Positions 8,375-24,020 of a stretch of DNA of 24,020 bases are shown here, piece by piece (position 1 is the first letter of the stretch; each line of letters begins with the position of its first letter). Source of the stretch: an uncultured Candidatus Poseidoniales archaeon (GTDB lineage Archaea > Thermoplasmatota > Poseidoniia > Poseidoniales > Thalassarchaeaceae); NCBI GenBank assembly GCA_964645485.1, contig CAZXZO010000025.1, positions 1 to 24,020 on the forward strand. Reading direction: 5' to 3'. The notes under the pieces were generated by a model that did not search any database, was not told where the DNA came from, and was given only the letters and a program-made list of their open reading frames with translations. A program made the translations under genes and the position numbers.

Positions 8375-8944
8375 ATGTCAGAGGAAGGATTTACACCAGG
8401 CGGAGAAGATTGGGAAGAGCAACTCCTAGAGCAGCTCTCAAAGATGTTTAACGACATGGGTATGCCGATGGATACGGCAACAATTAGAGGAATGATGGAT
8501 CAAATTCGTGGCCAATTCGAAGAGATGGGTATAGACCCAGAAAAGATGGCTGGCGAGAAAATTGAATTGAACTTAGAAGCCACCATGAATGATTTGGCAA
8601 AAATGATGGGAGGGAAATTCCCCAAAAAGAAACCAGTATCCGTTGAAGTAGAAACTTTGGAAGAAGAAAAATCTGATTCCGAAGCGTTGGTACCTGTTAA
8701 CGAAGAAGATATTTTTATTGATGGTGACAAGATGATTCTAACTCTTGATTGTAGTCGAATTGATGAGATTGATGATGATGGTGAAGGTGTTGAAGTCGTC
8801 TTAACCAATGATAACTCAGTTGTCAGCATAATGGTTGAAGGAAGGCCAAGACCAGTACGAAAGTACAACATTGGTAGAGTTGTTGAAGCGATGGATGGAT
8901 GGTCGATTAACAACGGAATTTTGGATATGACTCTAATAATTTGA
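8375..8944 (+). CDS. Divergent small heat-shock (Hsp20/alpha-crystallin-like) protein
   Basis: Long Met/Glu-rich N-region and a C-terminal beta-rich region ending [10 protein letters not shown], which resembles the Hsp20 NGvL signature. Lies immediately upstream of dnaK. Start could be GTG at 8366. Confidence 0.65.
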
Positions 8945-8958
8945 AGGAAGTGAAAAAT

Positions 8959-10842
8959 ATGGTAAAAAACCCAGTAATTGGAATTGATTTAGGAACGACA
9001 AATAGTTGTGTAGCGACTATTGAAGGTGGAGAAGCGATAGTAATTGCAAACGCAGAGGGAGCGCGTACTACACCAAGTGTAGTCGCTTTTGCAACTGATG
9101 GAGAGCGCATGGTCGGTGTAACCGCAAAGCGTCAGGCAGTAACCAACTCTGATCGCACCATTCTTTCTGTAAAAAGAGAGATGGGTAGCGATTGGACTCA
9201 GAAAATTGATGATGCTGAATACACTCCTCAAGAAATTTCAGCGTTCATTCTGCAGAAGATGAAAGCAGATGCTGAAGCATATCTTGGACAAGAAGTAAAG
9301 CAAGCAGTAATTACTTGCCCGGCATACTTCACCGATGCTCAGCGCAAAGCAACTAAGGATGCTGGTAGAATTGCTGGCCTTGAAGTCCTTCGTATCATCA
9401 ACGAACCAACAGCAGCAGCTTTGGCCTTTGGAGTCGACAAAGAAGATGACCAGACTATTTTAGTCTACGATTTAGGTGGCGGAACATTCGATGTATCGGT
9501 CCTAGAAATCTATCTAATTGATGGACAACCACAAATTGAAGTCAAAGCAACTGCAGGAAATAACAAACTTGGTGGCGATGATTTTGATGAAGAAATAATC
9601 AATTGGGCAGTTGCTGAATTCAAGAAATCCAGTGGTATTGATTTGTCAAAAGATTTGCAGGCAATGAGTCGTCTCAAAGAATCAGCAGAGAAGGCAAAAA
9701 TTGAACTCTCAGGGAATTCCCAGGCACAAATGAATCTTCCATTCATCACTATGGTGGATGGCCAACCTGCTCACCTTGACCTTACTTTGTCCAAGGCAAA
9801 GTTCGAAGACTTGATCGGCGGTCTTATTGAGAAATCAATGAAACCAACTAGGCAAGCAGTCAAAGACGCTGGGATTTCAGCATCAGAAATTGACAAAATC
9901 TTACTGATTGGCGGATCAACTAGAGTTCCAGCAGTCCAAGAAGCTATCGAGAAAGAACTCGGAAAGAAACCCTACAAGGGAATCAATCCTGATGAAGCAG
10001 TTGCACTTGGTGCAGCACTTCAGGCTGGCATTATCGTTGGCGATGATGCAGTAACCGATGTACTTCTACTCGATGTGACACCACTTAGCCTTGGGATTGA
10101 AACTCTTGGTGGTGTAACTACCTCAATGATTGAGAGAAATACCACAATTCCTACAAAGCGCTCGGAAACGTTCTCCACTGCAAGCGATAATCAGCCAGCG
10201 GTTGAAATCCATGTGTTACAAGGAGAGCGAGAATTCGCTCGTGACAACATAACACTAGGACGATTCTTCCTTGAAGGAATTCCTGCGGCTCCAAGAGGTA
10301 TGCCACAGATTGAAGTCGCATTCGACATTGATGCTAACGGTATTGTAAGCGTTTCAGCAAAGGATTTGGGTACTGGCAAAGAGCAGTCCATCCGAATTGA
10401 ATCTGCAACTTCACTAAGTGAAGAGGAAATCCAGCAAAAAATTGCTGATGCGGAGAAATTCGCCGAAGAAGATAGTTCAAGAAAAGGAAAAGTCGAGATT
10501 CGAAACTCCGCAGACAGTATCATCTACCAGACTCGTAGAACCTTGAAAGAGGCAGAAGATAAAATCACAGATGAAGACAAAGAACCTGTTGAAGAAAAAC
10601 TCACAGAACTTGAGGACCTCATTGTTGAAGATGGTACACCAAAAGAAATTGACGATATTGACGAGGAAGCAATCCAAGCCAAAGTCAAGGAATTGGAAGA
10701 GGCAATGCATGCGATCTCTGCAAAGTTGTACGAAGCAGCCTCAGCCCAGATGGAATCTGAGGAAGCGGCAGAAGAAGCAAGTGCTGATGGCAACGATGTG
10801 GTTGATGCTGACTTCGAAGTCGTTGACGAAGAAGAAAACTGA
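8959..10842 (+). CDS. dnaK: Chaperone DnaK (Hsp70)
   Basis: [65 protein letters not shown] and acidic C-terminus [12 protein letters not shown]. Short N-terminal region as in archaeal/Gram-positive DnaK. ATG at 8959 preferred over TTG at 8941. Confidence 0.98.
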
Positions 10843-11173
10843 GATAATACCCAATAATTCCAAAAAACCATACCACCTGCCAACTAATATTGAGTATTAC
10901 ATTGTGGTTGATAGAATTTCATACTGAAAAAAAGTAATCGTTCAGACATCTCTGAATGCTGCACAGGCAACCTATGCGGCCGTCATAACCTCTCTCCGCT
11001 GGACTAGGTTCAATTGGAGCATCAGCACACCGAACGATTTTGAACAGATAGCGCATTCGCGCAGTACCACGAATGGAGAAGGCTGAACGCTTTCAAAAAA
11101 AATGCAAATCTATACTGGTTACTGCAATTATAAACGGTTTAAATTATATCATAGCAGAGCAGAGCATTAGTTA

Positions 11174-12481
11174 GTGCCTCATCAAACTACGCTCTCGCGC
11201 CTGCTAGTTTTTTTGGTGGCGAGTGCCTTAATCTCATCCTTCTATCTGCCTTCTGCTATCGCAACTCTATCCACTGATGAGGACGAGCCTGAGGGCGAGT
11301 CTGAGGATGATGATGGAAACGATGCAGAGGATGTTCAAAATGAGGAAGACGAGCCTGAGGATGATGAGGATGACGAAGAAAATAGACATTCGGGCGAACA
11401 TCAAGTGAATATTGAAACCTCAGGCGATGAAGTAAAAATAGAACTTGAACGCGAAACTGAGACATTTGAATCAAAAATTGAAGTACGGTTTGATACCTCA
11501 AAAGCAAAAGTTGACCTTAAATTTGAGGAAGAAATTGGCAATATTGAAACCGAACAAAAAATGGAAATGGAGTTTGAACAAGTCTTCGAATTTAACGATT
11601 CAAATAGCAATGGAATATATGATGCGGGAGAGGAAATATTGGCAACTTGGGAGTTGCACAATAATGCCAAAACCATCTCTGGCTCACTAACTCCAGGCGA
11701 AGCAACTTGGGCCGACCCAACAGTTGCCCCTATCAGTTCAAACAATGTTTCAGGATGGCAAATAACAGCGCAAGCCCAACTTGAAAGTACTGGAGGGACT
11801 TTCAAAATAATTCTCTATGTTTTTGGCCAACAAACCAACCTCGCTGGCAATCAATTATCCCCTACAGATGTGAAAATTGACCTTGAATACCACGGGATTC
11901 CAACCCAATCTAATAACAGCGCTATTGGGCTATTATTTGAAGTTGAATCGGAACAAGAAATTGAAATTGAAGACGATGAAGATGAATCGGGATTTTATTC
12001 AAAGGGCCAGAGCGGGGATGTCGGAGTTAATCTCTCATTCTGTTGGCTTGAATATGCATCTGTTGATGGATTAAATCAATCAATTGGAATGACAATAATT
12101 GAATCAAACACAAACAGCGACAATTCTGAATTTAGTTTTGAAAGATTGGCAGTTTTCTCGTATCCAGCAGGAACAGAAATCATCCATGACCCTACAATAT
12201 CGGTAAAATATGGTGTTTTAAGCGACTCAACAGGCGGAATTACAGACAATTCCGGCAAAAATGAAACTTGGTACTCGAGTCTTAATTCTGCCTCTGTAAT
12301 CATCTCTCTAGCAGTCTTATTACCCATGTTCCTACTTGTAATAGGAGTCATTTTACGCGGTGGACGAATCCAAACTGAAGATTCAGATCTCAAAGAGCCT
12401 CTACTCCCGTGGCTATTACCAATGCCACCAATTGGTATAAATGTCAGCCAATTAGATTCGCAAAAGGAGGATGGCACATGA
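11174..12481 (+). CDS. Exported, C-terminally membrane-anchored acidic protein (paralog 1)
   Basis: GTG start, signal-peptide-like N-terminus, D/E tract, calcium-loop-like DSNSNGIYD, IIHDP motif, and a C-terminal TM. Clear paralog of 13657-14847. Confidence 0.85.
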   Translation: MPHQTTLSRLLVFLVASALISSFYLPSAIATLSTDEDEPEGESEDDDGNDAEDVQNEEDEPEDDEDDEENRHSGEHQVNIETSGDEVKIELERETETFESKIEVRFDTSKAKVDLKFEEEIGNIETEQKMEMEFEQVFEFNDSNSNGIYDAGEEILATWELHNNAKTISGSLTPGEATWADPTVAPISSNNVSGWQITAQAQLESTGGTFKIILYVFGQQTNLAGNQLSPTDVKIDLEYHGIPTQSNNSAIGLLFEVESEQEIEIEDDEDESGFYSKGQSGDVGVNLSFCWLEYASVDGLNQSIGMTIIESNTNSDNSEFSFERLAVFSYPAGTEIIHDPTISVKYGVLSDSTGGITDNSGKNETWYSSLNSASVIISLAVLLPMFLLVIGVILRGGRIQTEDSDLKEPLLPWLLPMPPIGINVSQLDSQKEDGT

Positions 12482-13329
12482 ACATAGAAGGTTGGACAAC
12501 TCGCCAGAGAGTACTCGCTTGCCTGACTGGGTCAAGCAATCACAGCCGCTCAGCAATAGCACCTACTAGATGGACGAGAGAAGGAATTTCTGAGCGGTTA
12601 GAAATTGACCAATCCGTTGTTTCGCGACATCTAAAATCACTATTTGATGAAGGCCTAATTATTTACGAACTCAGGCGAGTTCATGGATTGAGTCGACGCA
12701 GAAAAGTACCCGTACTCTCTAAACTTGGAGAGGAAAGGTTGCTAGACTTGCGCACGGTTTTACTTTCAGAACCTGTGGAGGTTGAACTACGGAGTGGAAG
12801 AGTGGAGAGAAGAGCGCTAGGCACCCTAAACCACCTATGGCCTGACTTGTCACTCGTTGATACTCTTGGACTGGTCGAATGGTACAAAAGAATCCGGCAA
12901 CCCATCCCTCTGAATTCTGGGCCGAACGCTGAAGCCGCCGGACGGCTTGACGAAACAATGGTTCACTGGGTGATGGAAGGGGCTGACACGCGCAACGATG
13001 CGATTGAAAGGGCCGCTTTGTTATTGACTCGCAATCTTTCTGTTAGCGCATTACTACGCTGGCAACTTGAATTGTTAGCAAGTGAAGGTCAAGCTGATTC
13101 TTGGAAACCTGATGCGATGCAAGGTAACGGCAGCGAGGTTACTGAATTCCTGCTGACTTGTGACTGGCAAAATGTGCCAACTGGCTGGTCGCCCACAATA
13201 GATGCTGCCAATAGATTACTCCTCGGTGAAGCAAATCGGCGCGATTTGAAATTGGTTGCATTAGCGGTTCAAAATGGGGCTCACGATGAATGGAATGCAC
13301 TTATTGGTGAAATCGACATTAGCCAATAA
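12478..13329 (+). CDS. Winged helix-turn-helix (MarR/ArsR-like) regulator with an uncharacterised C-terminal region (283 aa)
   Basis: Start reassigned to the ATG at 12478 (SD GGAGG, ATGA overlap with the upstream stop). wHTH-like segment TREGISERLEIDQSVVSRHLKSLFDEGLI...RRRKVPVLSKLG. Confidence 0.8.
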   Translation: MNIEGWTTRQRVLACLTGSSNHSRSAIAPTRWTREGISERLEIDQSVVSRHLKSLFDEGLIIYELRRVHGLSRRRKVPVLSKLGEERLLDLRTVLLSEPVEVELRSGRVERRALGTLNHLWPDLSLVDTLGLVEWYKRIRQPIPLNSGPNAEAAGRLDETMVHWVMEGADTRNDAIERAALLLTRNLSVSALLRWQLELLASEGQADSWKPDAMQGNGSEVTEFLLTCDWQNVPTGWSPTIDAANRLLLGEANRRDLKLVALAVQNGAHDEWNALIGEIDISQ

Positions 13330-13339
13330 TTCAACTACC

Positions 13340-13414
13340 TCAGGTTGTCGGCGTGGAAAAAACATTTTTATGCTTGTAATTTGTCATCATTTTGAGGAGC
13401 CTGATATTAGCCAT
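13340..13414 (-). CDS. 24-aa micropeptide coupled to the 48-aa ORF, possibly frameshifted
   Basis: Has its own SD AAGGAG and a TGATG stop/start overlap at 13412-13416. Translation: MANIRLLKMMTNYKHKNVFSTPTT. Removing one base from a T6 run restores RRQPEVVELLA, matching GQPETVELLA in the first ORF. Confidence 0.4.
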   Translation of the reverse strand: MANIRLLKMMTNYKHKNVFSTPTT

Positions 13415-13560
13415 CAATTCTCCTTGCTTTGGCTTAGCCGCTCGTAATCTGCCATCATTTTGAGTACATTGAAATGCGCCAATAATTCAACTGTCTCGGG
13501 TTGTCCTCTTGAGTTGTTCTCTTGAAAATACATCATTTTGAGGGAATTGACATTTGTCAT
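13414..13560 (-). CDS. Unannotated 48-aa micropeptide with two LKMM motifs
   Basis: SD AAGGAG upstream of the ATG at 13560. Translation: MTNVNSLKMMYFQENNSRGQPETVELLAHFNVLKMMADYERLSQSKEN. Below the track's 60-aa cutoff; expression unproven. Confidence 0.5.
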   Translation of the reverse strand: MTNVNSLKMMYFQENNSRGQPETVELLAHFNVLKMMADYERLSQSKEN

Positions 13561-13580
13561 TAATTCTCCTTTCTCAGGGT

Positions 13581-13625
13581 CTCAATTTTGCAAATGTGCA
13601 GTTATTTTGCAAAAATGCTCAATTT
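13581..13625. promoter_or_regulatory. Putative operator region with TTTGCAAA palindromes
   Basis: TTTGCAAA at 13587-13594 and TTTTGCAAAA at 13605-13614, with CTCAATTT at 13581 and 13618. Lies between divergent starts at 13560 and 13657. Confidence 0.35.
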
Positions 13626-13656
13626 GCCTTAATAGGTTAAGCCCTCAGTTGAAACC

Positions 13657-14847
13657 ATGCAACAAAGTGTGCGGTGGTTAATTGCTCTGTTGCTGGCATT
13701 GATGCTTGCCTTACCGGGAAGTGTTGTAGCCAGTGGTGGTGATGATGATGAAAATGATGACGATAGCGATAATGACGCTAACGGCACTGACGAGGATAAT
13801 GACGATGACGAACGAGAGGACCAAGAGAAACACAAAGTCGATGTCGATGTCTCGGGAGATGAAATAAAAGTTGAACTAAAGCGGGAACTCGGTGACGATG
13901 AAACCAAGATTGAGTTCAAGGTTGACCTTTCTGAGGCGAAATTCAAGTTGAAGTTTGAAGAGGAAACCGGTCAATTGGAAACCGAACAAAAACTCGAGGT
14001 CGTGATGCAACGCCTCTTTGAGTATGTCGATACGAACGGAAACGGGGCATATGACGAAGGCGAGGTGATCGCTTCTGGCTATCGAATTGGTGATTCTGGT
14101 GACTCACTTTCAGATTCTCCGGACAACGGTTCGGTTAACTGGGACCAACCAACGCTTAGTGACATCACTACAGGTGGGATCTCTGGTAAGGCTATGAGTG
14201 CAAGAGGGACTGTTGGACAAAATAGTGAAGGCGTGTTCGGTCTTGACATCAAAGTATATGGCGATTTTACCATGATGAATGGGAGTCAACTTCTTCCAAC
14301 CGAAGTCAAGATTGATTTCATAATTGAGAATTACCCATACACACAAAACGACACTGTACTCGGACTGTTACTCAAAACCAAAACCAAGCAAGAGCAAGAG
14401 CGAGACCACTCAGACATCGACACCGATGAAGAAGGAGTGGTCGCCTCCTCTAGCACCGATGTTAACGCCATCAGCCTCGGCTTTTCATGGAAACAGACTG
14501 CAACTGTCGACGGAGTCGACCTGCCCGTTCACACTACTGTATTGAGTTCCGAGACTGAGACAAGCGCGGATGAATTTGAGTTCAAACAACGCTTCGTTCT
14601 TGGATACGCTCGCGGGGCTGTGATTGTCCATGACCCAGTTGCAGGGGTTAGTTACGCCTCCACAGCAGCAGCAGTGGATGAAGGGGCATGGTACAGCAAC
14701 ATTCTACCTGGCTTCGGCTTGGTGGCAACTCTCGGAGCATTCATGGGTACTGCATTCCTAGTTCGACCTCGGACTGTGAACCGAATAATGGATTCAAAAG
14801 AGGCCCTAAGACTATCAGAAAGTGAGGGGCTCAGAGGCTACAACTGA
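13657..14847 (+). CDS. Exported acidic protein (paralog 2) with a PGF-CTERM-like anchor segment
   Basis: Signal peptide, D/E/N tract, DTNGNGAYD loop, IVHDP motif, then ILPGFGLVATLGAFMGTAFLVRPR. 32/56 identical to paralog 1 over a hand-aligned segment. Confidence 0.87.
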   Translation: MQQSVRWLIALLLALMLALPGSVVASGGDDDENDDDSDNDANGTDEDNDDDEREDQEKHKVDVDVSGDEIKVELKRELGDDETKIEFKVDLSEAKFKLKFEEETGQLETEQKLEVVMQRLFEYVDTNGNGAYDEGEVIASGYRIGDSGDSLSDSPDNGSVNWDQPTLSDITTGGISGKAMSARGTVGQNSEGVFGLDIKVYGDFTMMNGSQLLPTEVKIDFIIENYPYTQNDTVLGLLLKTKTKQEQERDHSDIDTDEEGVVASSSTDVNAISLGFSWKQTATVDGVDLPVHTTVLSSETETSADEFEFKQRFVLGYARGAVIVHDPVAGVSYASTAAAVDEGAWYSNILPGFGLVATLGAFMGTAFLVRPRTVNRIMDSKEALRLSESEGLRGYN

Positions 14848-14933
14848 TTCAGACCATAAGGGATGAACAGCGGTTTTGAAGGTTTCAAGAAATAGCCAAA
14901 GATTAATTTCAAGGTGTTGTTGAGGTCCATTGC

Positions 14934-15467
14934 ATGGGAATCAATTATCGGTGGCTCCTTCTCGCCGCGCTTCTATCGATTTGCCTGTTGGCTGCCCCTG
15001 TTTTAGGTGACGGCGACGACAATGATGACGACGATGGCTGGGGAGAAGACGGCGGTAAAGGCCTAGGAGTTGCTTCCGCAGTTTTACTCGGCTTGACTAT
15101 GAGTATCGTAGTGTGGAAACCAGGTCTCAAGTATTTGAGAAAAAATGCCAACAGTATAGTTGAGGATGGCCGGTGGCTGAAGAAAGAACTCGGAAAAGCA
15201 AATCGATGGTACATGAAAATCCACTATTGGATTGGCACGGGCGCGGTAGTCACTGGTCTAATCCACGGCATCGCGATGAACAAATGGGAGGTGGTGTTTT
15301 GGGCCGGTTGGGTAGGTATGCTCCTCATGTCTATCTCTGGAGGGTTATTGCTTTGGAAGTGGCCCCCTAGAGAGGTGAAAAAGGGTGCGCGACTCCTCCA
15401 TGCACAGCGGGCAATTCTAGTCATCACTGTTGTTCTAATCTTCATATCTCACGAAGGTTTTGATTAA
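14934..15467 (+). CDS. Membrane protein with four His; ferric-reductase-like/cytochrome b-like TM domain (tentative)
   Basis: Signal peptide, D/G tract and about four TM segments. His pair IHYWIGTGAVVTGLIH (14 apart) and a second pair LH...SH (17 apart). No FAD/NAD-binding domain. Confidence 0.65.
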   Translation: MGINYRWLLLAALLSICLLAAPVLGDGDDNDDDDGWGEDGGKGLGVASAVLLGLTMSIVVWKPGLKYLRKNANSIVEDGRWLKKELGKANRWYMKIHYWIGTGAVVTGLIHGIAMNKWEVVFWAGWVGMLLMSISGGLLLWKWPPREVKKGARLLHAQRAILVITVVLIFISHEGFD

Positions 15468-15472
15468 TTCGG

Positions 15473-18340
15473 ATGGGATTATTCATGTTGAAAAATGCAA
15501 TTTTGTTAAGTTTTCTGATGTTATCAACGAGTCTTGCCCCTCTGATTGCGGGGGGGGATAGCCTTGACAATTCTGATGAAGAATTGCTGGCCGAAGAGCG
15601 CGATGCACTATTCATTTCAAACACTGGTGGGCGGGAAGCACTAAATTTCTCACCCGATGTCTCTTTTAGATTTATACAAAACTCGCAAAATATTCAACTC
15701 AATCGGATGAAAGACTTGAACGATATTTTCCATTTCCTCAACATTTACTCACAAACAAGTGGAGTTGCTTCAATCAACTCAACGACTCGAAGCGAATTGA
15801 TTGTTCAAGTGCAATCATATCAAAATAGTGATGGAGGTTTTGGTGATTGGTTGAATGACCGTTCCAAAGCAGGTAGTACTAGAATTGCCGTTGAATCACT
15901 CGCTTTATTGGGCGCTCAACCACTGAATCTGACTTCACTCGAATTGTTCATTAACAGACTTCAAGTTAGTGGACTAGCATACGGAAACTTTGGATTCCGT
16001 TCAACAATTACCGAATCCGATGCTGATATCTCGACTACATATGATGCTGTGAGAGTGTTGACAATGCTGGGTATAACAGTCCCTAATGGCAGTGGGGTTG
16101 AAGAGTACATCCACCAGCACCGAAATTTGGATGGCGGCTATGGATATCAGACAAACCGTGAGGCTGGAATCTTTTGGCCCTCAACAACAATCCACACAGA
16201 ACGTGCTCTACTTGCACTACAAGCGATGGGAACTACAGCCGAGGAACCTGTCTTGACTACTGACTTCCTTCGCTCTGTTCAAGCGCCTGATGGGGGATTT
16301 TCGAATGAACCGACTACGATAGCAAAAGTGTCCTATACTTGGGACGCAGTGTTAGCTTTTGATGCGTTGATGGTCCCTTTACCTCGGCCAGCTGATGTCG
16401 CCGCTTTCACAAAATCAAATCAAATGCCATCGGGTGGGTGGCTTGAATACGCACTTGACACTAAGACTGGGATACACTCAACTCATTTCGCGGTGCGCAC
16501 ATTAAATTCACTCTCTGAACAGTTTGACCATGACTCTGTTTTGTCATATTTGGAGGCTGACCTCAACGCCAGCCTTGATGGTGGTTTTGGCAACCAACCT
16601 GGAATGGATTCCAATATTCGTATAACTTTTGACGCGATTACTGCTCTTAATCAGATTGGTCGAACACCCAACAATCGCACTGCGGCAAGCGAGTTTATTC
16701 TCAATGCTCAAAATCTAGATGGGGGATTTGGAGTAGGTGGTTCATCCGTTGAGTCAACCTATCGAGCAGTGGCAACCTTGCACCGCGCTGGAATTGATGT
16801 GCCAAATGGTAGTGCAACAGTCAATTTCATCAGAAACGCCCAGAATTTGGACGGCGGATTTGGTTTCAAGCCGGGTAGACCTTCCACTGCGGCTTACACT
16901 TATCGTAGTTTGATGGCTCTAAACTTACTCGCCTCCGAACCAATCAACAAAAATGGAACTATAACATATCTTCAGAATCTACAAAATCCTGATGGCGGAT
17001 TTGGTAGCACATTTGGAGACCAGTCATCTGCAATCGGTTCAACATACAGATGTATCCGAGGACTGACAATTTTAAACGCTCAGCCTTTGAATGTTGATAA
17101 CGCTGAAACATTCATTCTCTCAACCCAAAATCTAGACGGAGGATTTCGACTTTCCCCGGATTCCACCATGAGCCCAAACAATCTTTCAACAGCAGTTCGC
17201 ACCTATGACGCTGTAACCGCGTTGAGATATTTAGACCGACCACTCACATCAACAAATTCGGTAGACAATTTCATCAAAACTTTAAGAAACCCTGACCTTG
17301 GATTTGGTTCAAAACCATTCTTCACCTCAGAAGTGGAAGACTCATTCACCAGTGTATCCTCTCTCTATGCCCTACACCCAGAGTTGGACACCCCCCCTCA
17401 AATTCTCTCTAGTGGAGCGAGCATCCCTACCACATCCGCTGGACAAGAAATTTGGTTCAATCTCTCATACAATGATACCGATAACCAACTACCCGACAGA
17501 GTTGCTCTGGAAATTGACGGCACTCTGCAATTGATGCCATTGAGTACTAGGTTGCCTGCAATATCAAATCTAAATTTGACTTTACCAGTTGGCAACCATA
17601 CATTCCGCTTCATCATCTCATCAAACACTCACGAAGTATCCTCAGTTTTGAGTCAAGTTACAATTGAGCCAGTTGGCTCTCCACCCACCATCAACATCTC
17701 AGTGTCTCCAGATGAAGGTGACATTGAAACGGTTTTCACTTTCAAATCGTATCACTATGACGCGGATGGAGATGTACCTACATCAGTCCGTATTTCTATT
17801 GACGGTGGAGACTGGTTAGATATGAGCCTAGATTCAAGCGCGGAGAATGGCACCTACCTCTACCAGACAACACTTCTACCCGGACGTCATACGGCCAAAA
17901 CTCGGGTATCGGATGGAATTAATGTGGTTATTTCTGATAATATTCAATCACCTCTAGTCCTCTCGCCTGACTCATCAAGACCTGATTGGAAAACATTCCA
18001 AAAAATTGAACTTTTGATTCTAGACAAGAAAGGTGTGCAAATAGAAATAAATGATGTTCGCCAAACTATCCATGAAGGCCAACAAGCCTGGTTAGTAACA
18101 ATCCCGGATGAATTGGTGTATGTCAGTCATGATGGAAGTAATATTCTTGTCACCGCAGAAGACTCTTCACTTATTCCACAAGAATTTTCAGAACTTTTCA
18201 GTGCAAAGATTTTAATTTTTAGTGCGATAATATTAGCCACGCTCCTGATGCTAATTGGTTTGAAGGGTAGAGTAAAGAAGCGGCGAAAACGGAAGGATTT
18301 GGACCCGTGGCTAACCTCTGATGATTATTGGGGAGACTGA
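15473..18340 (+). CDS. Exported prenyltransferase/squalene-oxidase (PFTB)-repeat protein with Ig-like modules and a C-terminal TM anchor (955 aa)
   Basis: Eleven Q/R-N-x-D-G-G-F-G-like repeats (e.g. QNSDGGFG, RNLDGGYG, QNLDGGFG, QNPDGGFG). Two D-x-D...IDG...G-x-HT beta modules. TM followed by KKRRKRK. Confidence 0.88.
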   Translation: MGLFMLKNAILLSFLMLSTSLAPLIAGGDSLDNSDEELLAEERDALFISNTGGREALNFSPDVSFRFIQNSQNIQLNRMKDLNDIFHFLNIYSQTSGVASINSTTRSELIVQVQSYQNSDGGFGDWLNDRSKAGSTRIAVESLALLGAQPLNLTSLELFINRLQVSGLAYGNFGFRSTITESDADISTTYDAVRVLTMLGITVPNGSGVEEYIHQHRNLDGGYGYQTNREAGIFWPSTTIHTERALLALQAMGTTAEEPVLTTDFLRSVQAPDGGFSNEPTTIAKVSYTWDAVLAFDALMVPLPRPADVAAFTKSNQMPSGGWLEYALDTKTGIHSTHFAVRTLNSLSEQFDHDSVLSYLEADLNASLDGGFGNQPGMDSNIRITFDAITALNQIGRTPNNRTAASEFILNAQNLDGGFGVGGSSVESTYRAVATLHRAGIDVPNGSATVNFIRNAQNLDGGFGFKPGRPSTAAYTYRSLMALNLLASEPINKNGTITYLQNLQNPDGGFGSTFGDQSSAIGSTYRCIRGLTILNAQPLNVDNAETFILSTQNLDGGFRLSPDSTMSPNNLSTAVRTYDAVTALRYLDRPLTSTNSVDNFIKTLRNPDLGFGSKPFFTSEVEDSFTSVSSLYALHPELDTPPQILSSGASIPTTSAGQEIWFNLSYNDTDNQLPDRVALEIDGTLQLMPLSTRLPAISNLNLTLPVGNHTFRFIISSNTHEVSSVLSQVTIEPVGSPPTINISVSPDEGDIETVFTFKSYHYDADGDVPTSVRISIDGGDWLDMSLDSSAENGTYLYQTTLLPGRHTAKTRVSDGINVVISDNIQSPLVLSPDSSRPDWKTFQKIELLILDKKGVQIEINDVRQTIHEGQQAWLVTIPDELVYVSHDGSNILVTAEDSSLIPQEFSELFSAKILIFSAIILATLLMLIGLKGRVKKRRKRKDLDPWLTSDDYWGD

Positions 18341-18349
18341 GGTGAGATA

Positions 18350-19984
18350 ATGAAATGGGAAGAGAGATTATCGGTAATGAGTCTATTGTTTTTCGTCGGC
18401 ATTGCAGTTGTTTGGACGCGCCAAAATCTCGTCCACATGCAACCAATTCTCGCCGCTTCAACGCTATTTTTCGAATTGATAATTGGTGCACTTTTCATCG
18501 TAATTATGCGCAACGTAGTCGGCGTGAAAACATACGGAGTTTTCGGACCTGTGGTGGTGGCTCTTGGTTTGAAAACCAGTGGGTTGCTCACCGGTGTACC
18601 TCTTTACATTGACTTATTTATCGTCGGGATGCTCGTCTCAATGATCATTCATCCTCTAGCCTTACCGGGGTCATTCCGAGTAGCGGTTGTACAGACAATT
18701 ATCGCGATAACTCTAACCGTGTTTGAACTGGTTGGTGAGGTCTATCACCTTACAACTTTTGAGATGGCTATTTTCTTCCCAGTCATCGTTCTTTCATGGC
18801 TCGCTGACCGTTATGTTGCGCAAGTGGTAGAAACCGGATGGGTAGAGCCGACCAAGCAATTGCTCGGGACCATCTTTGTGGTGATTACCGCACAGATGCT
18901 GATTATTCAGGATTCTATTGTCAACTTCGTAGCCCTCAACCCAGAAACTTGGTTGGTTGGTCTAATTGTTCTTATTCTAATTGCAAGGAGTACTGGCATG
19001 AGGCTGTCTGAATATATCCGCTTCAAATTTGTCACTCAAAAAGATGGCCGCAAAGGGGTATTGGGGATTGATAAACGGAATCGCCACTTTGTGGCACGGT
19101 ACAACCCATGGACTCTATTCTCTTTCACCTCAAAAGATGCAATGAAACGCACCTTGATGCAATTAGAGATTCCAACCCCAACAACTTACTCAATTATTTC
19201 AGAGAGACATGAACTGAAAATGGTAAGGAAAGTTGCCGAAGAACATCAGGAATTTGTCATCAAACCTTCAAACGGATTTGGTGGTGAAGGAATTATTGTT
19301 CTAGGCGGAAAACATGAGGGAAAGGTGCCGGTTTTTCAGGCGAGGGGAAAAGATTGGTCGGTAAAAGATTTGGAAAGGCATGTCCTCTCAATTCTTGATG
19401 GGCAATACTCAGGGGGCAACAAAGATGTGGCAATTCTCGAGCGTCGAATAGTTCCAGACAAGAGATTAGAAAGATTCTGTTATGATGGTCTACCGGATAT
19501 TCGCGTTATAATTCTTGAGGGATTCCCGGTAATGGCAATGTCGCGGCTACCGACAAAGATTTCGGATGGCGCGGCTAACCTTCACAAAGGAGCTATTGGA
19601 CTCGGGCTGTCTCTACAAGATGGTTCAGCACTGCAAGCGGTATGGAAAGGCCGTGTGATAGAACACCACCCTGACACTGGGGCTGACCTGTCTGAGTTTA
19701 TTGTGCCTCATTGGGATGATGTGTTACGCTTGTCGATGCAAGCTCAAGCCGCAAGTCGGCTCGGTTATGTTGGTGCTGATATCGTCATGGACGAGGAGTT
19801 CGGGCCGATGATTTTGGAGGTCAATAAGAGGCCCGGGCTCGGCATTCAAAATACAAATCAGGCTGGGTTGCTGAGGCGGTTGACATTCATGGAAGCAAAT
19901 ATGCTCGAACACAAATTCAAGACAATGGATGACAGAATTGATGTGATGAAAAACTGGGATGCAAGGGGGTGGAAGAATGCGTGA
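18350..19984 (+). CDS. 7TM (7TM_transglut-type) domain fused to an alpha-L-glutamate-ligase-like ATP-grasp (ATPgrasp_ST/RimK-related)
   Basis: N-terminal: IGALFIVIMRNVVGVKTYGVFGP, FPVIVL, TGMRLSEYIRF. C-terminal: GVLGIDKRN, FVIKPSNGFGGEGI, GLPDIRVI, MAMSRLPT, ANLHKGA, GADIV, LEVNKRPGLGIQ. SD GAGGTGAG. Confidence 0.9.
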   Translation: MKWEERLSVMSLLFFVGIAVVWTRQNLVHMQPILAASTLFFELIIGALFIVIMRNVVGVKTYGVFGPVVVALGLKTSGLLTGVPLYIDLFIVGMLVSMIIHPLALPGSFRVAVVQTIIAITLTVFELVGEVYHLTTFEMAIFFPVIVLSWLADRYVAQVVETGWVEPTKQLLGTIFVVITAQMLIIQDSIVNFVALNPETWLVGLIVLILIARSTGMRLSEYIRFKFVTQKDGRKGVLGIDKRNRHFVARYNPWTLFSFTSKDAMKRTLMQLEIPTPTTYSIISERHELKMVRKVAEEHQEFVIKPSNGFGGEGIIVLGGKHEGKVPVFQARGKDWSVKDLERHVLSILDGQYSGGNKDVAILERRIVPDKRLERFCYDGLPDIRVIILEGFPVMAMSRLPTKISDGAANLHKGAIGLGLSLQDGSALQAVWKGRVIEHHPDTGADLSEFIVPHWDDVLRLSMQAQAASRLGYVGADIVMDEEFGPMILEVNKRPGLGIQNTNQAGLLRRLTFMEANMLEHKFKTMDDRIDVMKNWDARGWKNA

Positions 19985-21134
19985 AGATAAAGAGCGAATG
20001 GCGCTCTTTTTAGCGATTCTAATCACCTTAACATCGGTTGGAGTCTATCCAATCGTGGTCCAGCAACCACTGCGCGACCCTTGGCAAGTGACAGATATGG
20101 ATTTCACAGTCAATGTTAGTGTCAAGAACCTAGGTCTGAACCCTGCCCGAGATGTTCCCCTCCGATTAGCCCTACCAATGAGCGATATGGATGACCAAGA
20201 GTTGTTGTCTTACACATTTTCAGAACCTCTAGAGAGAGAGAGCAATGATACACTTGGTAACAAATTTGTCCACTTTGTGATTCCAAATATTGACCCAGCC
20301 ACAGAACATGTTATCACTATGAATATCTCGATGCGACTTTGGTCAGTTGACTATGATATTGAACCAGACATGGTGGGAGATTACCTAGGCGACCAGGATG
20401 TGTGGCTTGCCGAAAGCACCTACATCAATGTCAACGACCCAATTGTTCAGGAGGTAGCAGACCAAATTGCAAGTGAGAGCGAGTGGGCTGTTGATATCGG
20501 TTGGAACACCTACACTTGGATTATTGACAATATCTACTATCAACAAATTGCCGGTGAAAATGATGCTCGGAGCACGATTGAACTTGGTGAAGGTGGTTCG
20601 GCGGAATTTGGCAACTTATTTGTTGCATTGATGCGAGCAAATAACATTCCAGCTCGACGGCTCTCAGGCTGGGGTTCCCACTTTGACATCGACGATTCAT
20701 TACCCGACAATCGCTTTGCGCATGGTTGGGCTGAATTCTATCTTCCAGATGTTGGATGGCTTACTGCTGACCCAACTTGGGGTATCACAAATCGCTTTGA
20801 TAATTATGGAAATAGTGACGATAATCATATCGTCTTGACTAGGGGTGCCGGAATTCACTATCGCACGAGGGGGCCATATTCTGCCCCATTTGGGGAAACA
20901 ACATTAGACACTGATTACGATGTTTGGGTTACCGGAAAAACCGAGGAAAATTTATCACCAATCCGAACTGTTTTGACGACGATTTTGTTTGCAATGCCAT
21001 TCATATTCGCATTATTTGTAATATCAAGAGTGCGAACTCAGCGAAATGAAGTAAGTATTGATTTAACGCGCCCGCCACTAAAACTCAAAGAGCCTTTGGT
21101 TGCCGAAGCAGAGCCGAAACCTCCTCCGAGTTGA
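19977..21134 (+). CDS. Transglutaminase-like protein with Ser at the catalytic Cys position and TM segments at both ends
   Basis: GEGGSAEFGNLFVALMRANNIPAR and HGWAEFYLPDVGWLTADPT. ATG at 19977 overlaps the upstream stop by 8 nt and is preferred over 19959. Confidence 0.88.
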   Translation: MREDKERMALFLAILITLTSVGVYPIVVQQPLRDPWQVTDMDFTVNVSVKNLGLNPARDVPLRLALPMSDMDDQELLSYTFSEPLERESNDTLGNKFVHFVIPNIDPATEHVITMNISMRLWSVDYDIEPDMVGDYLGDQDVWLAESTYINVNDPIVQEVADQIASESEWAVDIGWNTYTWIIDNIYYQQIAGENDARSTIELGEGGSAEFGNLFVALMRANNIPARRLSGWGSHFDIDDSLPDNRFAHGWAEFYLPDVGWLTADPTWGITNRFDNYGNSDDNHIVLTRGAGIHYRTRGPYSAPFGETTLDTDYDVWVTGKTEENLSPIRTVLTTILFAMPFIFALFVISRVRTQRNEVSIDLTRPPLKLKEPLVAEAEPKPPPS

Positions 21135-21358
21135 AAAAAACTATTCCACCACCGACCTGACTTTTTATCGGAGATAATTAGTAAGCGTTCAAATCAAGGG
21201 AAATTTGACAAAATGTGCCCAAGTTGGAAATTTCGGTTAATAAATTGGCTCAATTTTGCAAAATATAGGTTGAAATTGGTTGGGAACGACAAATATCAAC
21301 GCAAAATTGGAGTTTTTTCGCTGAATGTGATACAAATAGGTCTGAACGCTACCAATAA

Positions 21359-21802
21359 TTATTCGTTTAAAGTATGTCTTAAACTAGAAAAATCCGGATT
21401 GCCATCGTCCCACAATACAACCTCAATCTCCCAGCCAGTTGGGTCTTTGAGGTACCATGCAGTTGAATGAGGGAATTTGCAAGCCCCACCATACAGGATA
21501 GACAATTTCTCACTTTCGATTATCGCTTCCCACGCCCCGCGATCGGTAATTTTTAGACCAAAATGTGCTAAATAATGCAAGCCGGAATCTTTCGCTTGGA
21601 AGCGGTCTTTTACAACCAAATTTGGCTGTTCGTAAAGACAGAGAAGTGCGTCGTCACACGCAAGCACACCCCACAGTTTCCCCTCATCTTCGCCGCGCTC
21701 TCGCAACTCAAACCCAAAAACTCGGGAGTACCATTCTACGCTCTCTGCAAAACTCGCCACACTCATGTTGAGGTGGTCCAAACACTTCACCAAACCGGCC
21801 AT
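21359..21802 (-). CDS. VOC/glyoxalase family protein
   Basis: LDHLNMSV...WYSRVFGF, HFGLKI, and YLKDPTGWEIE motifs. ATG at 21802 preferred over the track's 21850. Confidence 0.88.
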   Translation of the reverse strand: MAGLVKCLDHLNMSVASFAESVEWYSRVFGFELRERGEDEGKLWGVLACDDALLCLYEQPNLVVKDRFQAKDSGLHYLAHFGLKITDRGAWEAIIESEKLSILYGGACKFPHSTAWYLKDPTGWEIEVVLWDDGNPDFSSLRHTLNE

Positions 21803-21865
21803 GTGCCAAGCCACACACGGTTCTACTTTCAAAGCCTTGTCAGCGAGCAAGTGTTCAATTTCCTG

Positions 21866-22351
21866 CTAAATCCAGCGCCGAACTTTGTCCATGTATTCGT
21901 TATACGCTTCACCAATCGTTTGTTTAAGATACTCTTCTTCTGGTAAGACAACTAGGTAATGCAAAATTGGATAACCGAGGATATGGAAGGTAATGAATAA
22001 CCACGCATTATTGACAATTATCGCTACCCCTGCAACAATGAATCCCATTGCTAGGTAGACGGGATTTCTAGTGTAGCGGAATGGGCCATTTGTGACCACT
22101 TTATTGGTTGGAACATTATGTGAAAAATGTTCATCATGACTGCTGAAAGTTCGTCGAGCAGAAGCCATAAGTAAAACCCCAATAAAAATGCAAGGCAGAC
22201 CTAAGATTGCCCGAAGATAACCTTGTTCTAACACTGAAATCGGAAATGCATAATTGATGGCAAAACCGACTCCAACAAGAATCAGCACTAAGATGGGTGG
22301 TTTGAAGGGAAGGCGAATTTGATTATTATTTTCTTGCAACTTTATCACCAA
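21866..22351 (-). CDS. Isoprenylcysteine carboxyl methyltransferase (ICMT/PEMT) family membrane protein
   Basis: VVTNGPFRYTRNPVYLAM and EEEYL...GEAYNEYMDKVRRWI motifs, with several TM segments. Confidence 0.88.
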   Translation of the reverse strand: MVIKLQENNNQIRLPFKPPILVLILVGVGFAINYAFPISVLEQGYLRAILGLPCIFIGVLLMASARRTFSSHDEHFSHNVPTNKVVTNGPFRYTRNPVYLAMGFIVAGVAIIVNNAWLFITFHILGYPILHYLVVLPEEEYLKQTIGEAYNEYMDKVRRWI

Positions 22352-22373
22352 ATTAGGTATTCATTACATATGA

Positions 22374-23894
22374 TTATTCGCCGTTGATCAAACGCACCAG
22401 CGTTCGTACATGGACACCAGTCGCACCGTGAGCAACCATGGCGTTGGTTGAGGTGCCCCAGGCAGTTCCGGCGATATCTAAATGCGCCCACGGATATTGC
22501 TTTGCGTCATCCCCTTCTCCATTCTTAGGAACGAATTGTTTGAGGAATCCTGCCGCGGAATTAGAACCACCATATCTTTCTCCAAGATTTTTGACATCTG
22601 CAATTTTTGAACCTGTCATTTGCTTTTCAAACGCAGGCAACAGAGGCATCGGCCAAGCCAATTCACCACTATCTGCCGCTGCCTTGCGCAAATTCTCCAA
22701 CAAGTCATCATCGTTTGACCACAAACCACTGGCTTCGTGACCTAATGCAACAACGCAGGCACCAGTCAAAGTAGCAAGGTCAATGATGTATTCAGGATTA
22801 TACTCGCCAGCTTTCCACAATCCGTCAGCAAGAACAAGTCTACCTTCAGCGTCTGTGTTCAGCACTTCAACGGTTTTTCCTGAGTATGTAGGAATAACGT
22901 CACCCGGCCTGTAAGCGGTTGAACTAGGGCTGTTTTCTGCCATGCAAGAAATCGCCATCATGTGGCCTTTGTGGCCAACACCATGTAATGCAACCATCAA
23001 TCCAAACACGGTTGCGGAACCGTGCATGTCAAACTTCATTTCATCCATTCCAGCACCTGGCTTCAATGAAATTCCACCGGTATCAAAAGTGATTCCTTTG
23101 CCTACAATAATTGGACAGGGTCCATCCTTAGCCTTAGCATTTAATTCCCAAATCACCATGCAGGGAGGGTGTTCACTACCCTTCCCAACATTGATGAGGC
23201 CACCCATTTTGTTCTCTAGTAGGTCGTCCCACTCTAGAACAGTCACCGACAAGTTGCCTTTCCCTTTGGCAAATGCTTGGGCCCGTGCGGCATACTCCAT
23301 TGGAGTCAATTTGTTGGCTGGTTCGTTTCCGAGGTCTCTCGCAATATGTACCCCTGTGGCCATTGCTGATACACGGTCGCAACCTGCAGAAAGTTTGTCG
23401 AGATGACGGTTTGATGCTTGGAAAGTCACTGTGTATGGTGTATCATCATCATCGTCATCATCATCCTTTGAAAGATACTTGTCAAACTTGTAATCTCTCA
23501 GCATCATACCTTCCCCAAATGCTGTCATCATTGAGGATTTCCAACCACTTGTGAATCGGACAATGATGGACTTTCCATGTGATTTATTGAGGCCTGCTAG
23601 TGTGTTAGCGCCCACGTCTCTAACTGAATTGGATTTCAAATCGCTGGATTTTCCTACACCTACAAGAACAACTTTACAATCTTCGTTCCAGAGTGAAATC
23701 ATCTTCCCGGATTTACCATCAAAATCCTCACTTCCAATTGCAGATTTCACCTGTGCTTGACCTGCTCGACTCAAACCTGTTAGAGAGCGATTTGGTGGTT
23801 TATCTACACCCTCAAAAAGAGGAATTATCAGTGTAGTTGGTCCAGGGCCTTCATTCTCATTCCAATTATAAATCGCGCTTACTTGATGTTCCAT
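22374..23894 (-). CDS. pepA: Leucyl aminopeptidase (peptidase M17)
   Basis: VGKGITFDTGGISLKP, MKFDM, NTDAEGRLVLAD, IDLATLTGA, and WAHLDIAGT motifs. ATG at 23894 or GTG at 23900. Confidence 0.96.
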   Translation of the reverse strand: MEHQVSAIYNWNENEGPGPTTLIIPLFEGVDKPPNRSLTGLSRAGQAQVKSAIGSEDFDGKSGKMISLWNEDCKVVLVGVGKSSDLKSNSVRDVGANTLAGLNKSHGKSIIVRFTSGWKSSMMTAFGEGMMLRDYKFDKYLSKDDDDDDDDTPYTVTFQASNRHLDKLSAGCDRVSAMATGVHIARDLGNEPANKLTPMEYAARAQAFAKGKGNLSVTVLEWDDLLENKMGGLINVGKGSEHPPCMVIWELNAKAKDGPCPIIVGKGITFDTGGISLKPGAGMDEMKFDMHGSATVFGLMVALHGVGHKGHMMAISCMAENSPSSTAYRPGDVIPTYSGKTVEVLNTDAEGRLVLADGLWKAGEYNPEYIIDLATLTGACVVALGHEASGLWSNDDDLLENLRKAAADSGELAWPMPLLPAFEKQMTGSKIADVKNLGERYGGSNSAAGFLKQFVPKNGEGDDAKQYPWAHLDIAGTAWGTSTNAMVAHGATGVHVRTLVRLINGE

Positions 23895-24020
23895 AAGCAC
23901 CCCGATTGGGCGACACTATTCAAAGGTGAGTGTTACCAAAAATAAACTAAAGTGGTAATTTTTCGGTTCGGCCAGCATTTTTTTCATGGAAAAACATGGT
24001 TTCACGCCGTTCCGAAGCGA

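Follow-up and report, generated by a model that had tools for sequence, protein, structure and literature searches.

The window analyzed here is a stretch of 24,020 nucleotides from an uncultured Candidatus Poseidoniales archaeon (GenBank assembly GCA_964645485.1, contig CAZXZO010000025.1, positions 1 to 24,020, forward strand). It is archaeal in content, with ~44% G+C and genes encoding a thermosome, an archaeal pilin and GrpE-DnaK. Seven genes at 11174-21134, g1 to g7, had been read in a first-pass annotation of the sequence as a single, undescribed system for modifying the cell surface, and seven open reading frames (ORFs) on the plus strand were indeed found where that annotation had placed them. 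However, the evidence presented below divides them differently: the last three genes (g5-g6-g7, hereafter the triad) very probably form a conserved unit related to the bacterial Rlo system, with g1-g4 as separable neighbors. The genes are as follows (TM, transmembrane; 7TM, seven-TM domain; pI, isoelectric point).

g1, 11174-12481, plus strand: exported, very acidic protein (pI 4.05) without a Pfam family.
g2, 12478-13329 (longest ORF from 12409), plus strand: cytoplasmic regulator with an ArsR/SmtB-type helix-turn-helix.
g3, 13657-14847, plus strand: exported acidic protein (pI 4.18) with a PGF-CTERM-type tail.
g4, 14934-15467, plus strand: small membrane protein with a signal peptide and four helices; candidate di-heme cytochrome b-like protein.
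g5, 15473-18340, plus strand: exported alpha-alpha toroid protein; first triad gene.
g6, N-terminal part, 18350-19069, plus strand: RloB-type multi-helix membrane domain (PF14402, residues 43-227).
g6, C-terminal part, 19076-19984, plus strand: cytoplasmic RimK/RloC-like ATP-grasp domain (PF14397, residues 243-512; TIGR02291).
g7, 19977-21134, plus strand: transglutaminase-fold enzyme (PF01841); third triad gene.

The gene junctions were read directly from the sequence. g1 and g2 overlap by the tetranucleotide ATGA, with the ATG of g2 lying on the g1 stop codon, and are followed by a gap of 327 nt before g3. The g3/g4 gap measures 86 nt, the g4/g5 gap 5 nt and the g5/g6 gap 9 nt (with GGTGAG inside), while g6 and g7 overlap by 8 nt. 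As the 327-nt interval contrasts with the tight spacing elsewhere, the genes are probably organized in two transcription units, g1-g2 and g3-g7. No RNA runs are listed as carrying this stretch; its carriers are three DNA runs from subsurface metagenomes. Signal or membrane segments were detected in six of the seven products by a hydropathy scan, the exception being g2. These junctions and segments agree with the first-pass annotation, which had counted six such products and had noted the gaps of 5 and 9 nt and the 8-nt overlap.

The domains of the triad recall those of RloABC of Pseudomonas aeruginosa, in which Rlo stands for retropepsin-like osmotic stress tolerance (PMC11957051; bioRxiv 10.1101/2025.03.18.643919). 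That system comprises a secreted retropepsin (RloA), a protein joining an inactive transglutaminase domain to a 7TM domain (RloB) and an ATP-grasp protein (RloC). RloA cleaves runs of at least eight Glu residues; loss of all RloA proteases results in hypo-osmotic sensitivity, and loss of rloB or rloC suppresses this defect, with the product and the substrates still unidentified in that work (PMC11957051). A bacterial operon of this composition had been invoked in the first-pass annotation; the link to that operon, now named RloABC, is real (PMC11957051). Likewise, the PFTB-repeat, 7TM/ATP-grasp and transglutaminase-like assignments made there for g5, g6 and g7 correspond to matches to PF00432, PF14402 plus PF14397, and PF01841, respectively.

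The 544-aa product of g6 joins PF14402 (described as "7TM usually fused to an inactive transglutaminase"; 86.3 bits against a cut-off of 25) to an ATP-grasp domain of the PF14397/TIGR02291 type. The NF052267 model for RloB covers the same part of g6 as PF14402. For the ligase part the best family is PF14397, whose Pfam name is "sugar-transfer associated" (1.3e-70, 238 bits). The TIGR00768 model for the RimK family scored 41.5 bits, well under its cut-off of 143.4, and on these scores g6 is better described as a relative of the RimK family alpha-L-glutamate ligases than as a member. The nearest solved structure to the ligase domain is nevertheless that of RimK, and the nucleotide- and Mg-binding motifs of the ATP-grasp fold, including K305, D477, E490 and N492, are invariant in 16 diverse homologs. 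g6 has no ectodomain. Its membrane domain was modeled with a predicted local distance difference test score (pLDDT) of 89.9 and contains several short or broken helices. Foldseek returned zero matches to this domain at E <= 0.001, and the best matches of a VIA wide search (RnfA/NqrE, Z 7.3; an ALMT channel, Z 6.7) fall in the noise range for helical proteins.

g5 encodes an exported protein of 955 aa, in which toroid repeats (residues ~100-640) are followed by a beta-rich C-terminal region and then a terminal TM anchor. PF00432 matches it in five stretches (5e-62, 210.5 bits), and the nearest relatives of the toroid by sequence are terpene cyclases and prenyltransferase beta subunits. The protein has one Cys, and the catalytic parts of the cyclases are unmatched. 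The export of g5 argues for a binding role. A PepSY-like segment considered for the g5 C terminus was unsupported: a relaxed Pfam scan gave no usable match there, nor in the C-terminal half of g2, the N-terminal domain of g7 or the bodies of g1 and g3.

The third triad gene, g7, encodes 385 aa from the ATG at 19977, with N-terminal and C-terminal membrane helices flanking a transglutaminase core. It matches PF01841 (2e-16, 60.6 bits against a cut-off of 23) and not PF14400, the family of the inactive RloB domain; its nearest solved structure is 3isr, a putative cysteine protease. The candidate catalytic residues are Ser208-His249-Asp265, of which His249 and Asp265 are invariant among 14 aligned orthologs. 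At the nucleophile position, Ser is found in all 10 Thermoplasmatota and Micrarchaeota sequences, that of the window included (motif EGGSA), and Cys in all four Asgard-type loci. g7 therefore departs from the Cys-His-Asp set that defines the transglutaminase-like superfamily, Ser replacing Cys. That the transglutaminase is here a separate gene carrying Ser had been noticed in the first-pass annotation. Aligned with hhalign, the ectodomains of g7 and RloB are colinear, but the alignment is weak (probability 35%, E 4e-4); RloB has no catalytic residues at the positions aligned to those of g7. g7 may thus be a catalytically intact relative of the dead transglutaminase ectodomain of RloB, split off as a gene of its own.

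The ORFs of all fetched loci were searched with g1 to g7. The 7TM-ligase fusion represented by g6 is patchy but widespread, occurring in Thermoplasmatota, Micrarchaeota, Woesearchaeota, Asgard archaea, many cultured haloarchaea, where it is already annotated yet uncharacterized, and some bacteria. Genomic homologs number more than 590. Among the sampled genomes it was present in 2 of 61 in the order of the window, in 10 of 401 in the phylum (counting the full-length form) and in 18 of 301 in the class that holds Halorubrum. Wherever the full fusion was found in the phylum, g5-g6-g7 were colinear (10/10 genomes, including the sister genome G001 and a Thermoplasmatales locus, L003/L004 being the Thermoplasmatales and Micrarchaeota loci). 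The same order recurs in the Micrarchaeota locus and in L010, L012, L042 and L048, which represent two Heimdallarchaeota, one Thorarchaeota and one unclassified archaeon. As this colinearity recurs in four archaeal phyla, the g5-g6-g7 arrangement is far beyond chance.

No homolog of any of g1-g4 accompanies the triad in at least 13 other archaeal loci from four phyla; in L003 and L004, the genes upstream of the triad are unrelated to g1-g4. The gene neighborhood survey seeded with the 7TM-ATP-grasp fusion, which the first-pass annotation had proposed as a check, thus upheld the co-occurrence of g5, g6 and g7 but not that of g1-g4. Its view of the last genes as one unit is borne out for the last three by their colinearity and by fusions of a toroid or a transglutaminase domain to the 7TM-ligase. 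In the Heimdallarchaeota and Thorarchaeota loci, a single frame of 1374-1395 aa encodes toroid, 7TM and ATP-grasp in this order, a fusion present in L010 and L048, and in a gammaproteobacterium (L082) transglutaminase, 7TM and ATP-grasp follow one another in one frame.

In proteobacteria the order is the same, with the 7TM domain of RloB followed by RloC, and RloC starts one codon past the RloB stop, in frame. From this in-frame junction, the archaeal fusion looks like a read-through version of the RloB/RloC junction from which the transglutaminase part has been separated. In nearly all proteobacterial loci (L014, L017 and ~65 others of L013-L081), RloB and RloC share the same frame with a single stop between them; the junctions at L014:10555-10570 and L017:10555-10572 read TGA GCC ATG and TAA GTT ATG, respectively. 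Translation of the two frames may thus be tightly coupled, or read-through may sometimes yield a fused protein of the archaeal kind.

Compared with RloABC, the triad shares the membrane domain (PF14402) and the ATP-grasp subfamily (PF14397/TIGR02291), arranged in g6 in the same order, as well as an extracytoplasmic transglutaminase-fold domain and an extracytoplasmic hydrolase in the set. The differences concern how the parts are joined. The 7TM domain is fused to the ligase in g6 and to the transglutaminase in RloB; g7 is a separate gene that keeps Ser-His-Asp, whereas the RloB domain (PF14400) is inactive; the RloA retropepsin (PF05618) was not found here, whereas a large exported toroid, g5, is extra; and the host is an archaeon, which has no outer-membrane-bounded periplasm. 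This rewiring, with 7TM on the ligase, a separate transglutaminase and a new exported partner, is the layout that the first-pass annotation had described. Because a fused dead transglutaminase and a retropepsin are missing and a toroid is added, the triad is, as judged from its domains, a variant of the Rlo system rather than a member of it.

Another counterpart of the triad is the Asgard cassette, which has colinear toroid, 7TM/ATP-grasp and transglutaminase genes. The Asgard 7TM-ligase additionally carries a fused second toroid module (about 1370-1395 aa), and the outside enzyme there has Cys as its nucleophile; in the window, the ligase protein has no ectodomain, the nucleophile is Ser and g1-g4 adjoin. 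The pairing of a ligase with a hydrolase is also seen in RimK/RimB, the poly-alpha-L-glutamate ligase of ribosomal protein S6 and its trimming protease, although RimK is soluble with a cytoplasmic protein target and g6 is joined to a membrane domain. With the poly-gamma-glutamate capsule systems of Bacillus (PgsBCA/CapBCAD) the analogy is one of logic, namely a membrane-associated ATP-dependent amide ligase with membrane partners and a transpeptidase or depolymerase on the outside. The sequences are unrelated, PgsB being of the Mur ligase type and CapD a gamma-glutamyltranspeptidase. A link to archaeal poly-gamma-glutamate or glutaminylglycan was considered and found unsupported, though it is still conceivable: no protein from the known producers Natrialba and Natronococcus was among the named relatives of a Natrialbaceae ortholog, and the fusion occurs in the 18/301 genomes of the class of Halorubrum given above. 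A literature search, whose coverage did not extend to Iyer et al. 2009, returned no description of the archaeal triad form. The archaeal Rlo-like cassette is thus apparently undescribed; the underlying kind of system is known, though poorly understood, and nothing about it is categorically new.

No match to the retropepsin family PF05618 was obtained in the genome of the window, which is 82% complete, while control genomes were matched; the absence of a pepsin-like peptidase reported in the first-pass annotation therefore holds to that extent. Archaeal 7TM-ligase genes that have no toroid and transglutaminase partners pair instead with a subtilase of the Peptidase_S8 family, as at the following positions.

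L009:4965-7856: Bathyarchaeota locus with a subtilase in the same frame as the ligase and downstream of it.
L007:2408-3946, minus strand: locus with adjoining 7TM-ligase and subtilase genes.
L008:11603-14020, minus strand: locus with adjoining 7TM-ligase and subtilase genes.

Judging from these few loci, the ligase would seem always to be accompanied by an outside hydrolase or transferase, be it a retropepsin, a subtilase or a live transglutaminase-fold enzyme. Two further forms of the ligase were encountered. Haloarchaeal and Methanobacteriota 7TM-ligases (L005:9407-11809 and L007:153-2375) carry an extra N-terminal region of ~190-210 residues, preceding the 7TM domain and with no Pfam match, which may be a further kind of ectodomain. 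In addition, 26 genomes of the phylum, mostly of one family (G118, G113, G187 and 23 others; loci L107-L109), encode a stand-alone RloC-like ATP-grasp protein of ~365-390 aa, near which no 7TM part was detected with the query used.

The relationship between the triad and g1-g4 can be followed at the site itself, the edges of which are conserved genes.

dnaK, 8941-10842, plus strand: left edge of the variable island.
M17 aminopeptidase gene, 22374-23900, minus strand: right edge of the variable island.

In the sister genome G001, all seven genes lie in order between these edges. Other genomes of the genus have different contents between dnaK and the M17 gene.

G005: empty, with the two edge genes directly adjacent.
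G011: a glyoxalase gene alone.
G009: g3-g4, with no triad genes.
G016: g3-g4, a 50-codon remnant of the g5 N terminus (72% identity) and a second g4.

Comparison of the window (10843-22373) with loci L084-L087 gives five contents for this junction: empty; glyoxalase; g3-g4 plus glyoxalase; g3-g4 with the g5 scar and an additional g4 copy; and the complete set together with PEMT-like and glyoxalase genes. With contents differing in this way across the genus, the dnaK/M17 site is a hot spot of gene content. The seven genes were already linked in an ancestor of the genus. In G009 and G016, where the triad is missing, both g3 and g4 have stayed intact, and G016 keeps the g5 deletion scar. The g3 genes of these two genomes had been considered as pseudogenes, but their apparent stops are natural stop codons that end shorter proteins.

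These data bear on the proposal that all seven genes form one surface modification system in which g7 attaches or cross-links the ligase product onto the acidic proteins g1 and g3. The tight spacing of g3-g7 (gaps of 86, 5 and 9 nt and an overlap of 8 nt), the order preserved in G001 and the G016 scar, which attests to an ancestral linkage of g3-g4 with the triad, are all in keeping with it, and g1, g3 and g4 bear poly-Asp/Glu tails on the outside that are similar to the polyanionic substrates of RloA. However, the triad occurs without a g1-g4 homolog in the 13 or more loci from four phyla described above, and g3 and g4 survive intact where the triad is gone. Furthermore, the g4 family is present in 18 of 61 relatives in the order of the window, mostly alone and in unrelated contexts, compared with 2 of 61 for g6, and the g3 family is limited to 13 proteins of the marine lineage. 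As the triad exists without g1-g4 in other loci and g3-g4 outlive its loss, g1-g4 are best regarded as a lineage-specific neighbor and not as a required part. We therefore consider the single seven-gene system, as put forward in the first-pass annotation, quite improbable. Its suggestion that the acidic proteins are the required acceptors is unsupported for the same reason, g1-g4 having been found only in the genus of the window while the triad occurs elsewhere in their absence. In this window, tight spacing has merged two modules with separate histories into an apparent seven-gene "system".

For the triad itself, three features point towards a design in which a product is made inside and processed outside. 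First, gene fusions place the inside ligase on one polypeptide with outside modules. Second, the transglutaminase-fold domain on the outside is catalytic if a separate protease is absent and dead if one is present. Third, the part of the protease is played by any of three unrelated folds. In the mechanism we propose, the ligase would build, on the inner side of the membrane, an acidic peptide or amino acid oligomer, which might be of the glutamate type as the analogy to RimK and the poly-Glu specificity of RloA suggest. The membrane domain would pass the product across the membrane or couple to it. Outside, the toroid of g5 would act as a scaffold that holds the product, and g7, docked on the membrane domain of g6 through its C-terminal helix, would trim or transfer it as a Ser-His-Asp enzyme. 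g7 would in this way fill the role of the secreted retropepsin of proteobacteria and of the subtilase of some other archaea.

The docking step rests on a structural model. Complex modeling had been suggested in the first-pass annotation, and the pair of the g6 membrane domain and g7 was run, yielding a predicted contact with a score of 0.64 (best of three controls, 0.00). Of 80 solved complexes, 58 reached this mark, as did 2 of 110 mismatched pairs; these counts are approximate since the alignments were self-made. Contact agreement between runs was at least 77%, and the pLDDT of the partners was at least 81. The modeled interface is formed mainly by residues 327-356 of the g7 C-terminal helix, including the invariant P341, packed against g6 helices around residues 83-91, 128-137 and 163-168. 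This suggests that the helix is a docking element beyond a mere anchor. As both chains are parts of one protein in bacteria, a passing score for this pair is to be expected.

Several points weigh against the mechanism or limit it. The ligase narrowly missed the cut-off of TIGR02291, the RimK-related "alpha-L-glutamate ligase-like" family (296.6 bits; cut-off, 314.2). The modeled membrane domain has no clear relative among transporters, which leaves the export step conjectural, and since it lacks a clear solved relative of any kind, its fold does not decide between a transporter and a receptor. Ser is unusual as a nucleophile in a transglutaminase/papain fold, and activity could be low or altered. 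The g6-g7 complex is a prediction, which supports binding without showing it. Finally, the 5-nt gap between g4 and g5 and the seven-gene order in G001 make co-transcription, and a functional link of the two modules within this genus, possible. Taking all of this together, we assign a probability of roughly 0.6 to the composite reading of two modules plus mechanism. The make-inside, process-outside mechanism, judged separately, is tentative, its chances being somewhat under even.

With its ectodomains, multi-helix membrane domain and cytoplasmic enzyme, the same layout resembles a receptor and could serve signaling in the opposite direction. The toroid and transglutaminase-fold proteins would then sense or bind an envelope ligand, the membrane domain would relay the signal and the ATP-grasp domain would modify a cytoplasmic target, with no export. 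The ligase is necessarily cytoplasmic, the solved structures nearest to it belong to enzymes with a cytoplasmic protein target, as in the glutamylation of ribosomal protein S6 by RimK, and a recognizable transporter fold is missing from the membrane domain. The suppression of protease loss by loss of rloB or rloC would fit equally well with a protease that switches a receptor off. However, catalytic residues kept intact across phyla indicate chemistry outside and not binding alone, and protease-type outside partners occur in three different forms. Moreover, the protease partner in bacteria is a secreted one whose substrate, poly-Glu, is a typical product of RimK-like ligases. We thus regard outside-in signaling as a serious rival, though the less likely reading.

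A different product is conceivable as well. Archaeal lipids and glycan carriers are isoprenoid, the "sugar-transfer associated" PF14397 is the best family for the ligase and the g5 toroid is nearest to terpene cyclases and prenyltransferase beta subunits, all of which would suit a cassette for making or modifying a glycoconjugate or an isoprenoid-linked molecule at the surface, with the toroid binding a polyprenyl or terpenoid moiety. However, no glycosyltransferase or polyprenyl-phosphate gene was present in the triad loci examined, the nearest relatives of the ligase are TIGR02291 and RimK, and g5, with its single Cys, is unmatched to the catalytic parts of the cyclases. This alternative is very improbable.

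A more specific version of the preferred make-inside, process-outside mechanism has only a small chance of being correct. Here, the triad would be a trans-membrane synthase, exporter and transferase of a poly-Glu-like anionic peptide polymer that g7 anchors or trims on the surface; in this lineage, the exported proteins g1, g3 and g4, with their genome-encoded poly-Asp/Glu tails, would be its primers or acceptors. If true, archaeal surfaces would carry polyglutamylated proteins or a peptide capsule, and the product of bacterial Rlo would be revealed. More generally, the archaeal forms are natural experiments for solving Rlo chemistry. Several of the cultured haloarchaea with the 7TM-ligase fusion, orthologs being present in Halorubrum kocurii, Natronomonas sp. 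EA1 and Salarchaeum japonicum, could be used for genetics.

The neighboring genes g1-g4 constitute a second module, hereafter module B. g1 and g3 are paralogs (36% identity), and both have a D/E-rich N-terminal tail. The body is beta-rich in g1 and a beta-sandwich in g3, with EF-hand-like loops at residues 142 and 125, respectively. g1 carries a signal peptide, and its C-terminal TM segment lacks a PGF motif. A PGF-CTERM-type tail (LPGF, a TM segment and basic residues) is present in g3 and in 12 of 13 homologs, although the short NCBIfam model of the PGF-CTERM tail gave no match in g3. As archaeosortase A is encoded in the genome of the window (TIGR04125, 85 bits, above cut-off), g3 is a probable substrate of this enzyme. 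A sequence search returned 13 close relatives of g3, all from the marine lineage of the window and without a named family. Structural neighbors in the Atlas (NCU-G1/GLMP, TM score 0.55, and the N-terminal sandwich of GH65) are leads only. One g1/g3-like case was seen outside this lineage, a distant homolog (E ~1e-14) in Methanomassiliicoccales (L011:12808-13866), ~1.2 kb downstream of a 7TM-ligase gene.

The 177-aa product of g4 combines a signal peptide and four helices with a poly-Asp tail on the outside. Its His residues at four positions (H97 and H111 in TM2, H156 and H173 in TM4) are invariant among nine sequences with 40-71% identity to g4. No Pfam, NCBIfam or PDB sequence match was obtained. 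The model (pLDDT 72) matches the folds of Dcytb (Z 10.1, root mean square deviation 3.4, 147 residues aligned), b6 (Z 9.4), b561 (Z 9.2) and CybB (Z 9.1), values that helical bundles can reach through their arrangement alone. With the di-heme four-helix cytochromes b (Dcytb/cytochrome b561 and the superoxide oxidase CybB), g4 shares the four-helix membrane bundle and two His on each of two helices, with a pair near each membrane face. The poly-Asp tail, however, is foreign to these proteins, and a sequence family match is absent. g4 is therefore a candidate di-heme cytochrome b-like electron carrier: the cytochrome b-like assignment of the first-pass annotation has no family match and rests on the invariant His and on fold matches that are indecisive for helical bundles.

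Overall, module B (g3-g4 together with the duplicate g1 and the regulator g2) probably has a metal-, cation- or redox-related function at the surface. It would combine lipid-anchored, cation-binding acidic surface proteins with a four-histidine cytochrome b-like protein under an ArsR-type regulator, and might make use of the triad while being independent of it. A metal- or calcium-handling surface module had been offered in the first-pass annotation as an alternative for the whole cluster; it suits g1-g4 better than the triad, for which it is the poorer fit.

Two other genes of the window were recorded. Directly downstream of the cluster, at 21866-22351 on the minus strand, lies a gene for a PEMT/ICMT-family membrane methyltransferase (isoprenylcysteine carboxyl methyltransferase-like). 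It adjoins a glyoxalase-fold gene, is kept in G001 and lies outside the triad elsewhere. At 998-2299, also on the minus strand, a 433-aa protein is encoded that combines a dual-specificity/PTP-type phosphatase domain with a domain of the endonuclease/exonuclease/phosphatase family.

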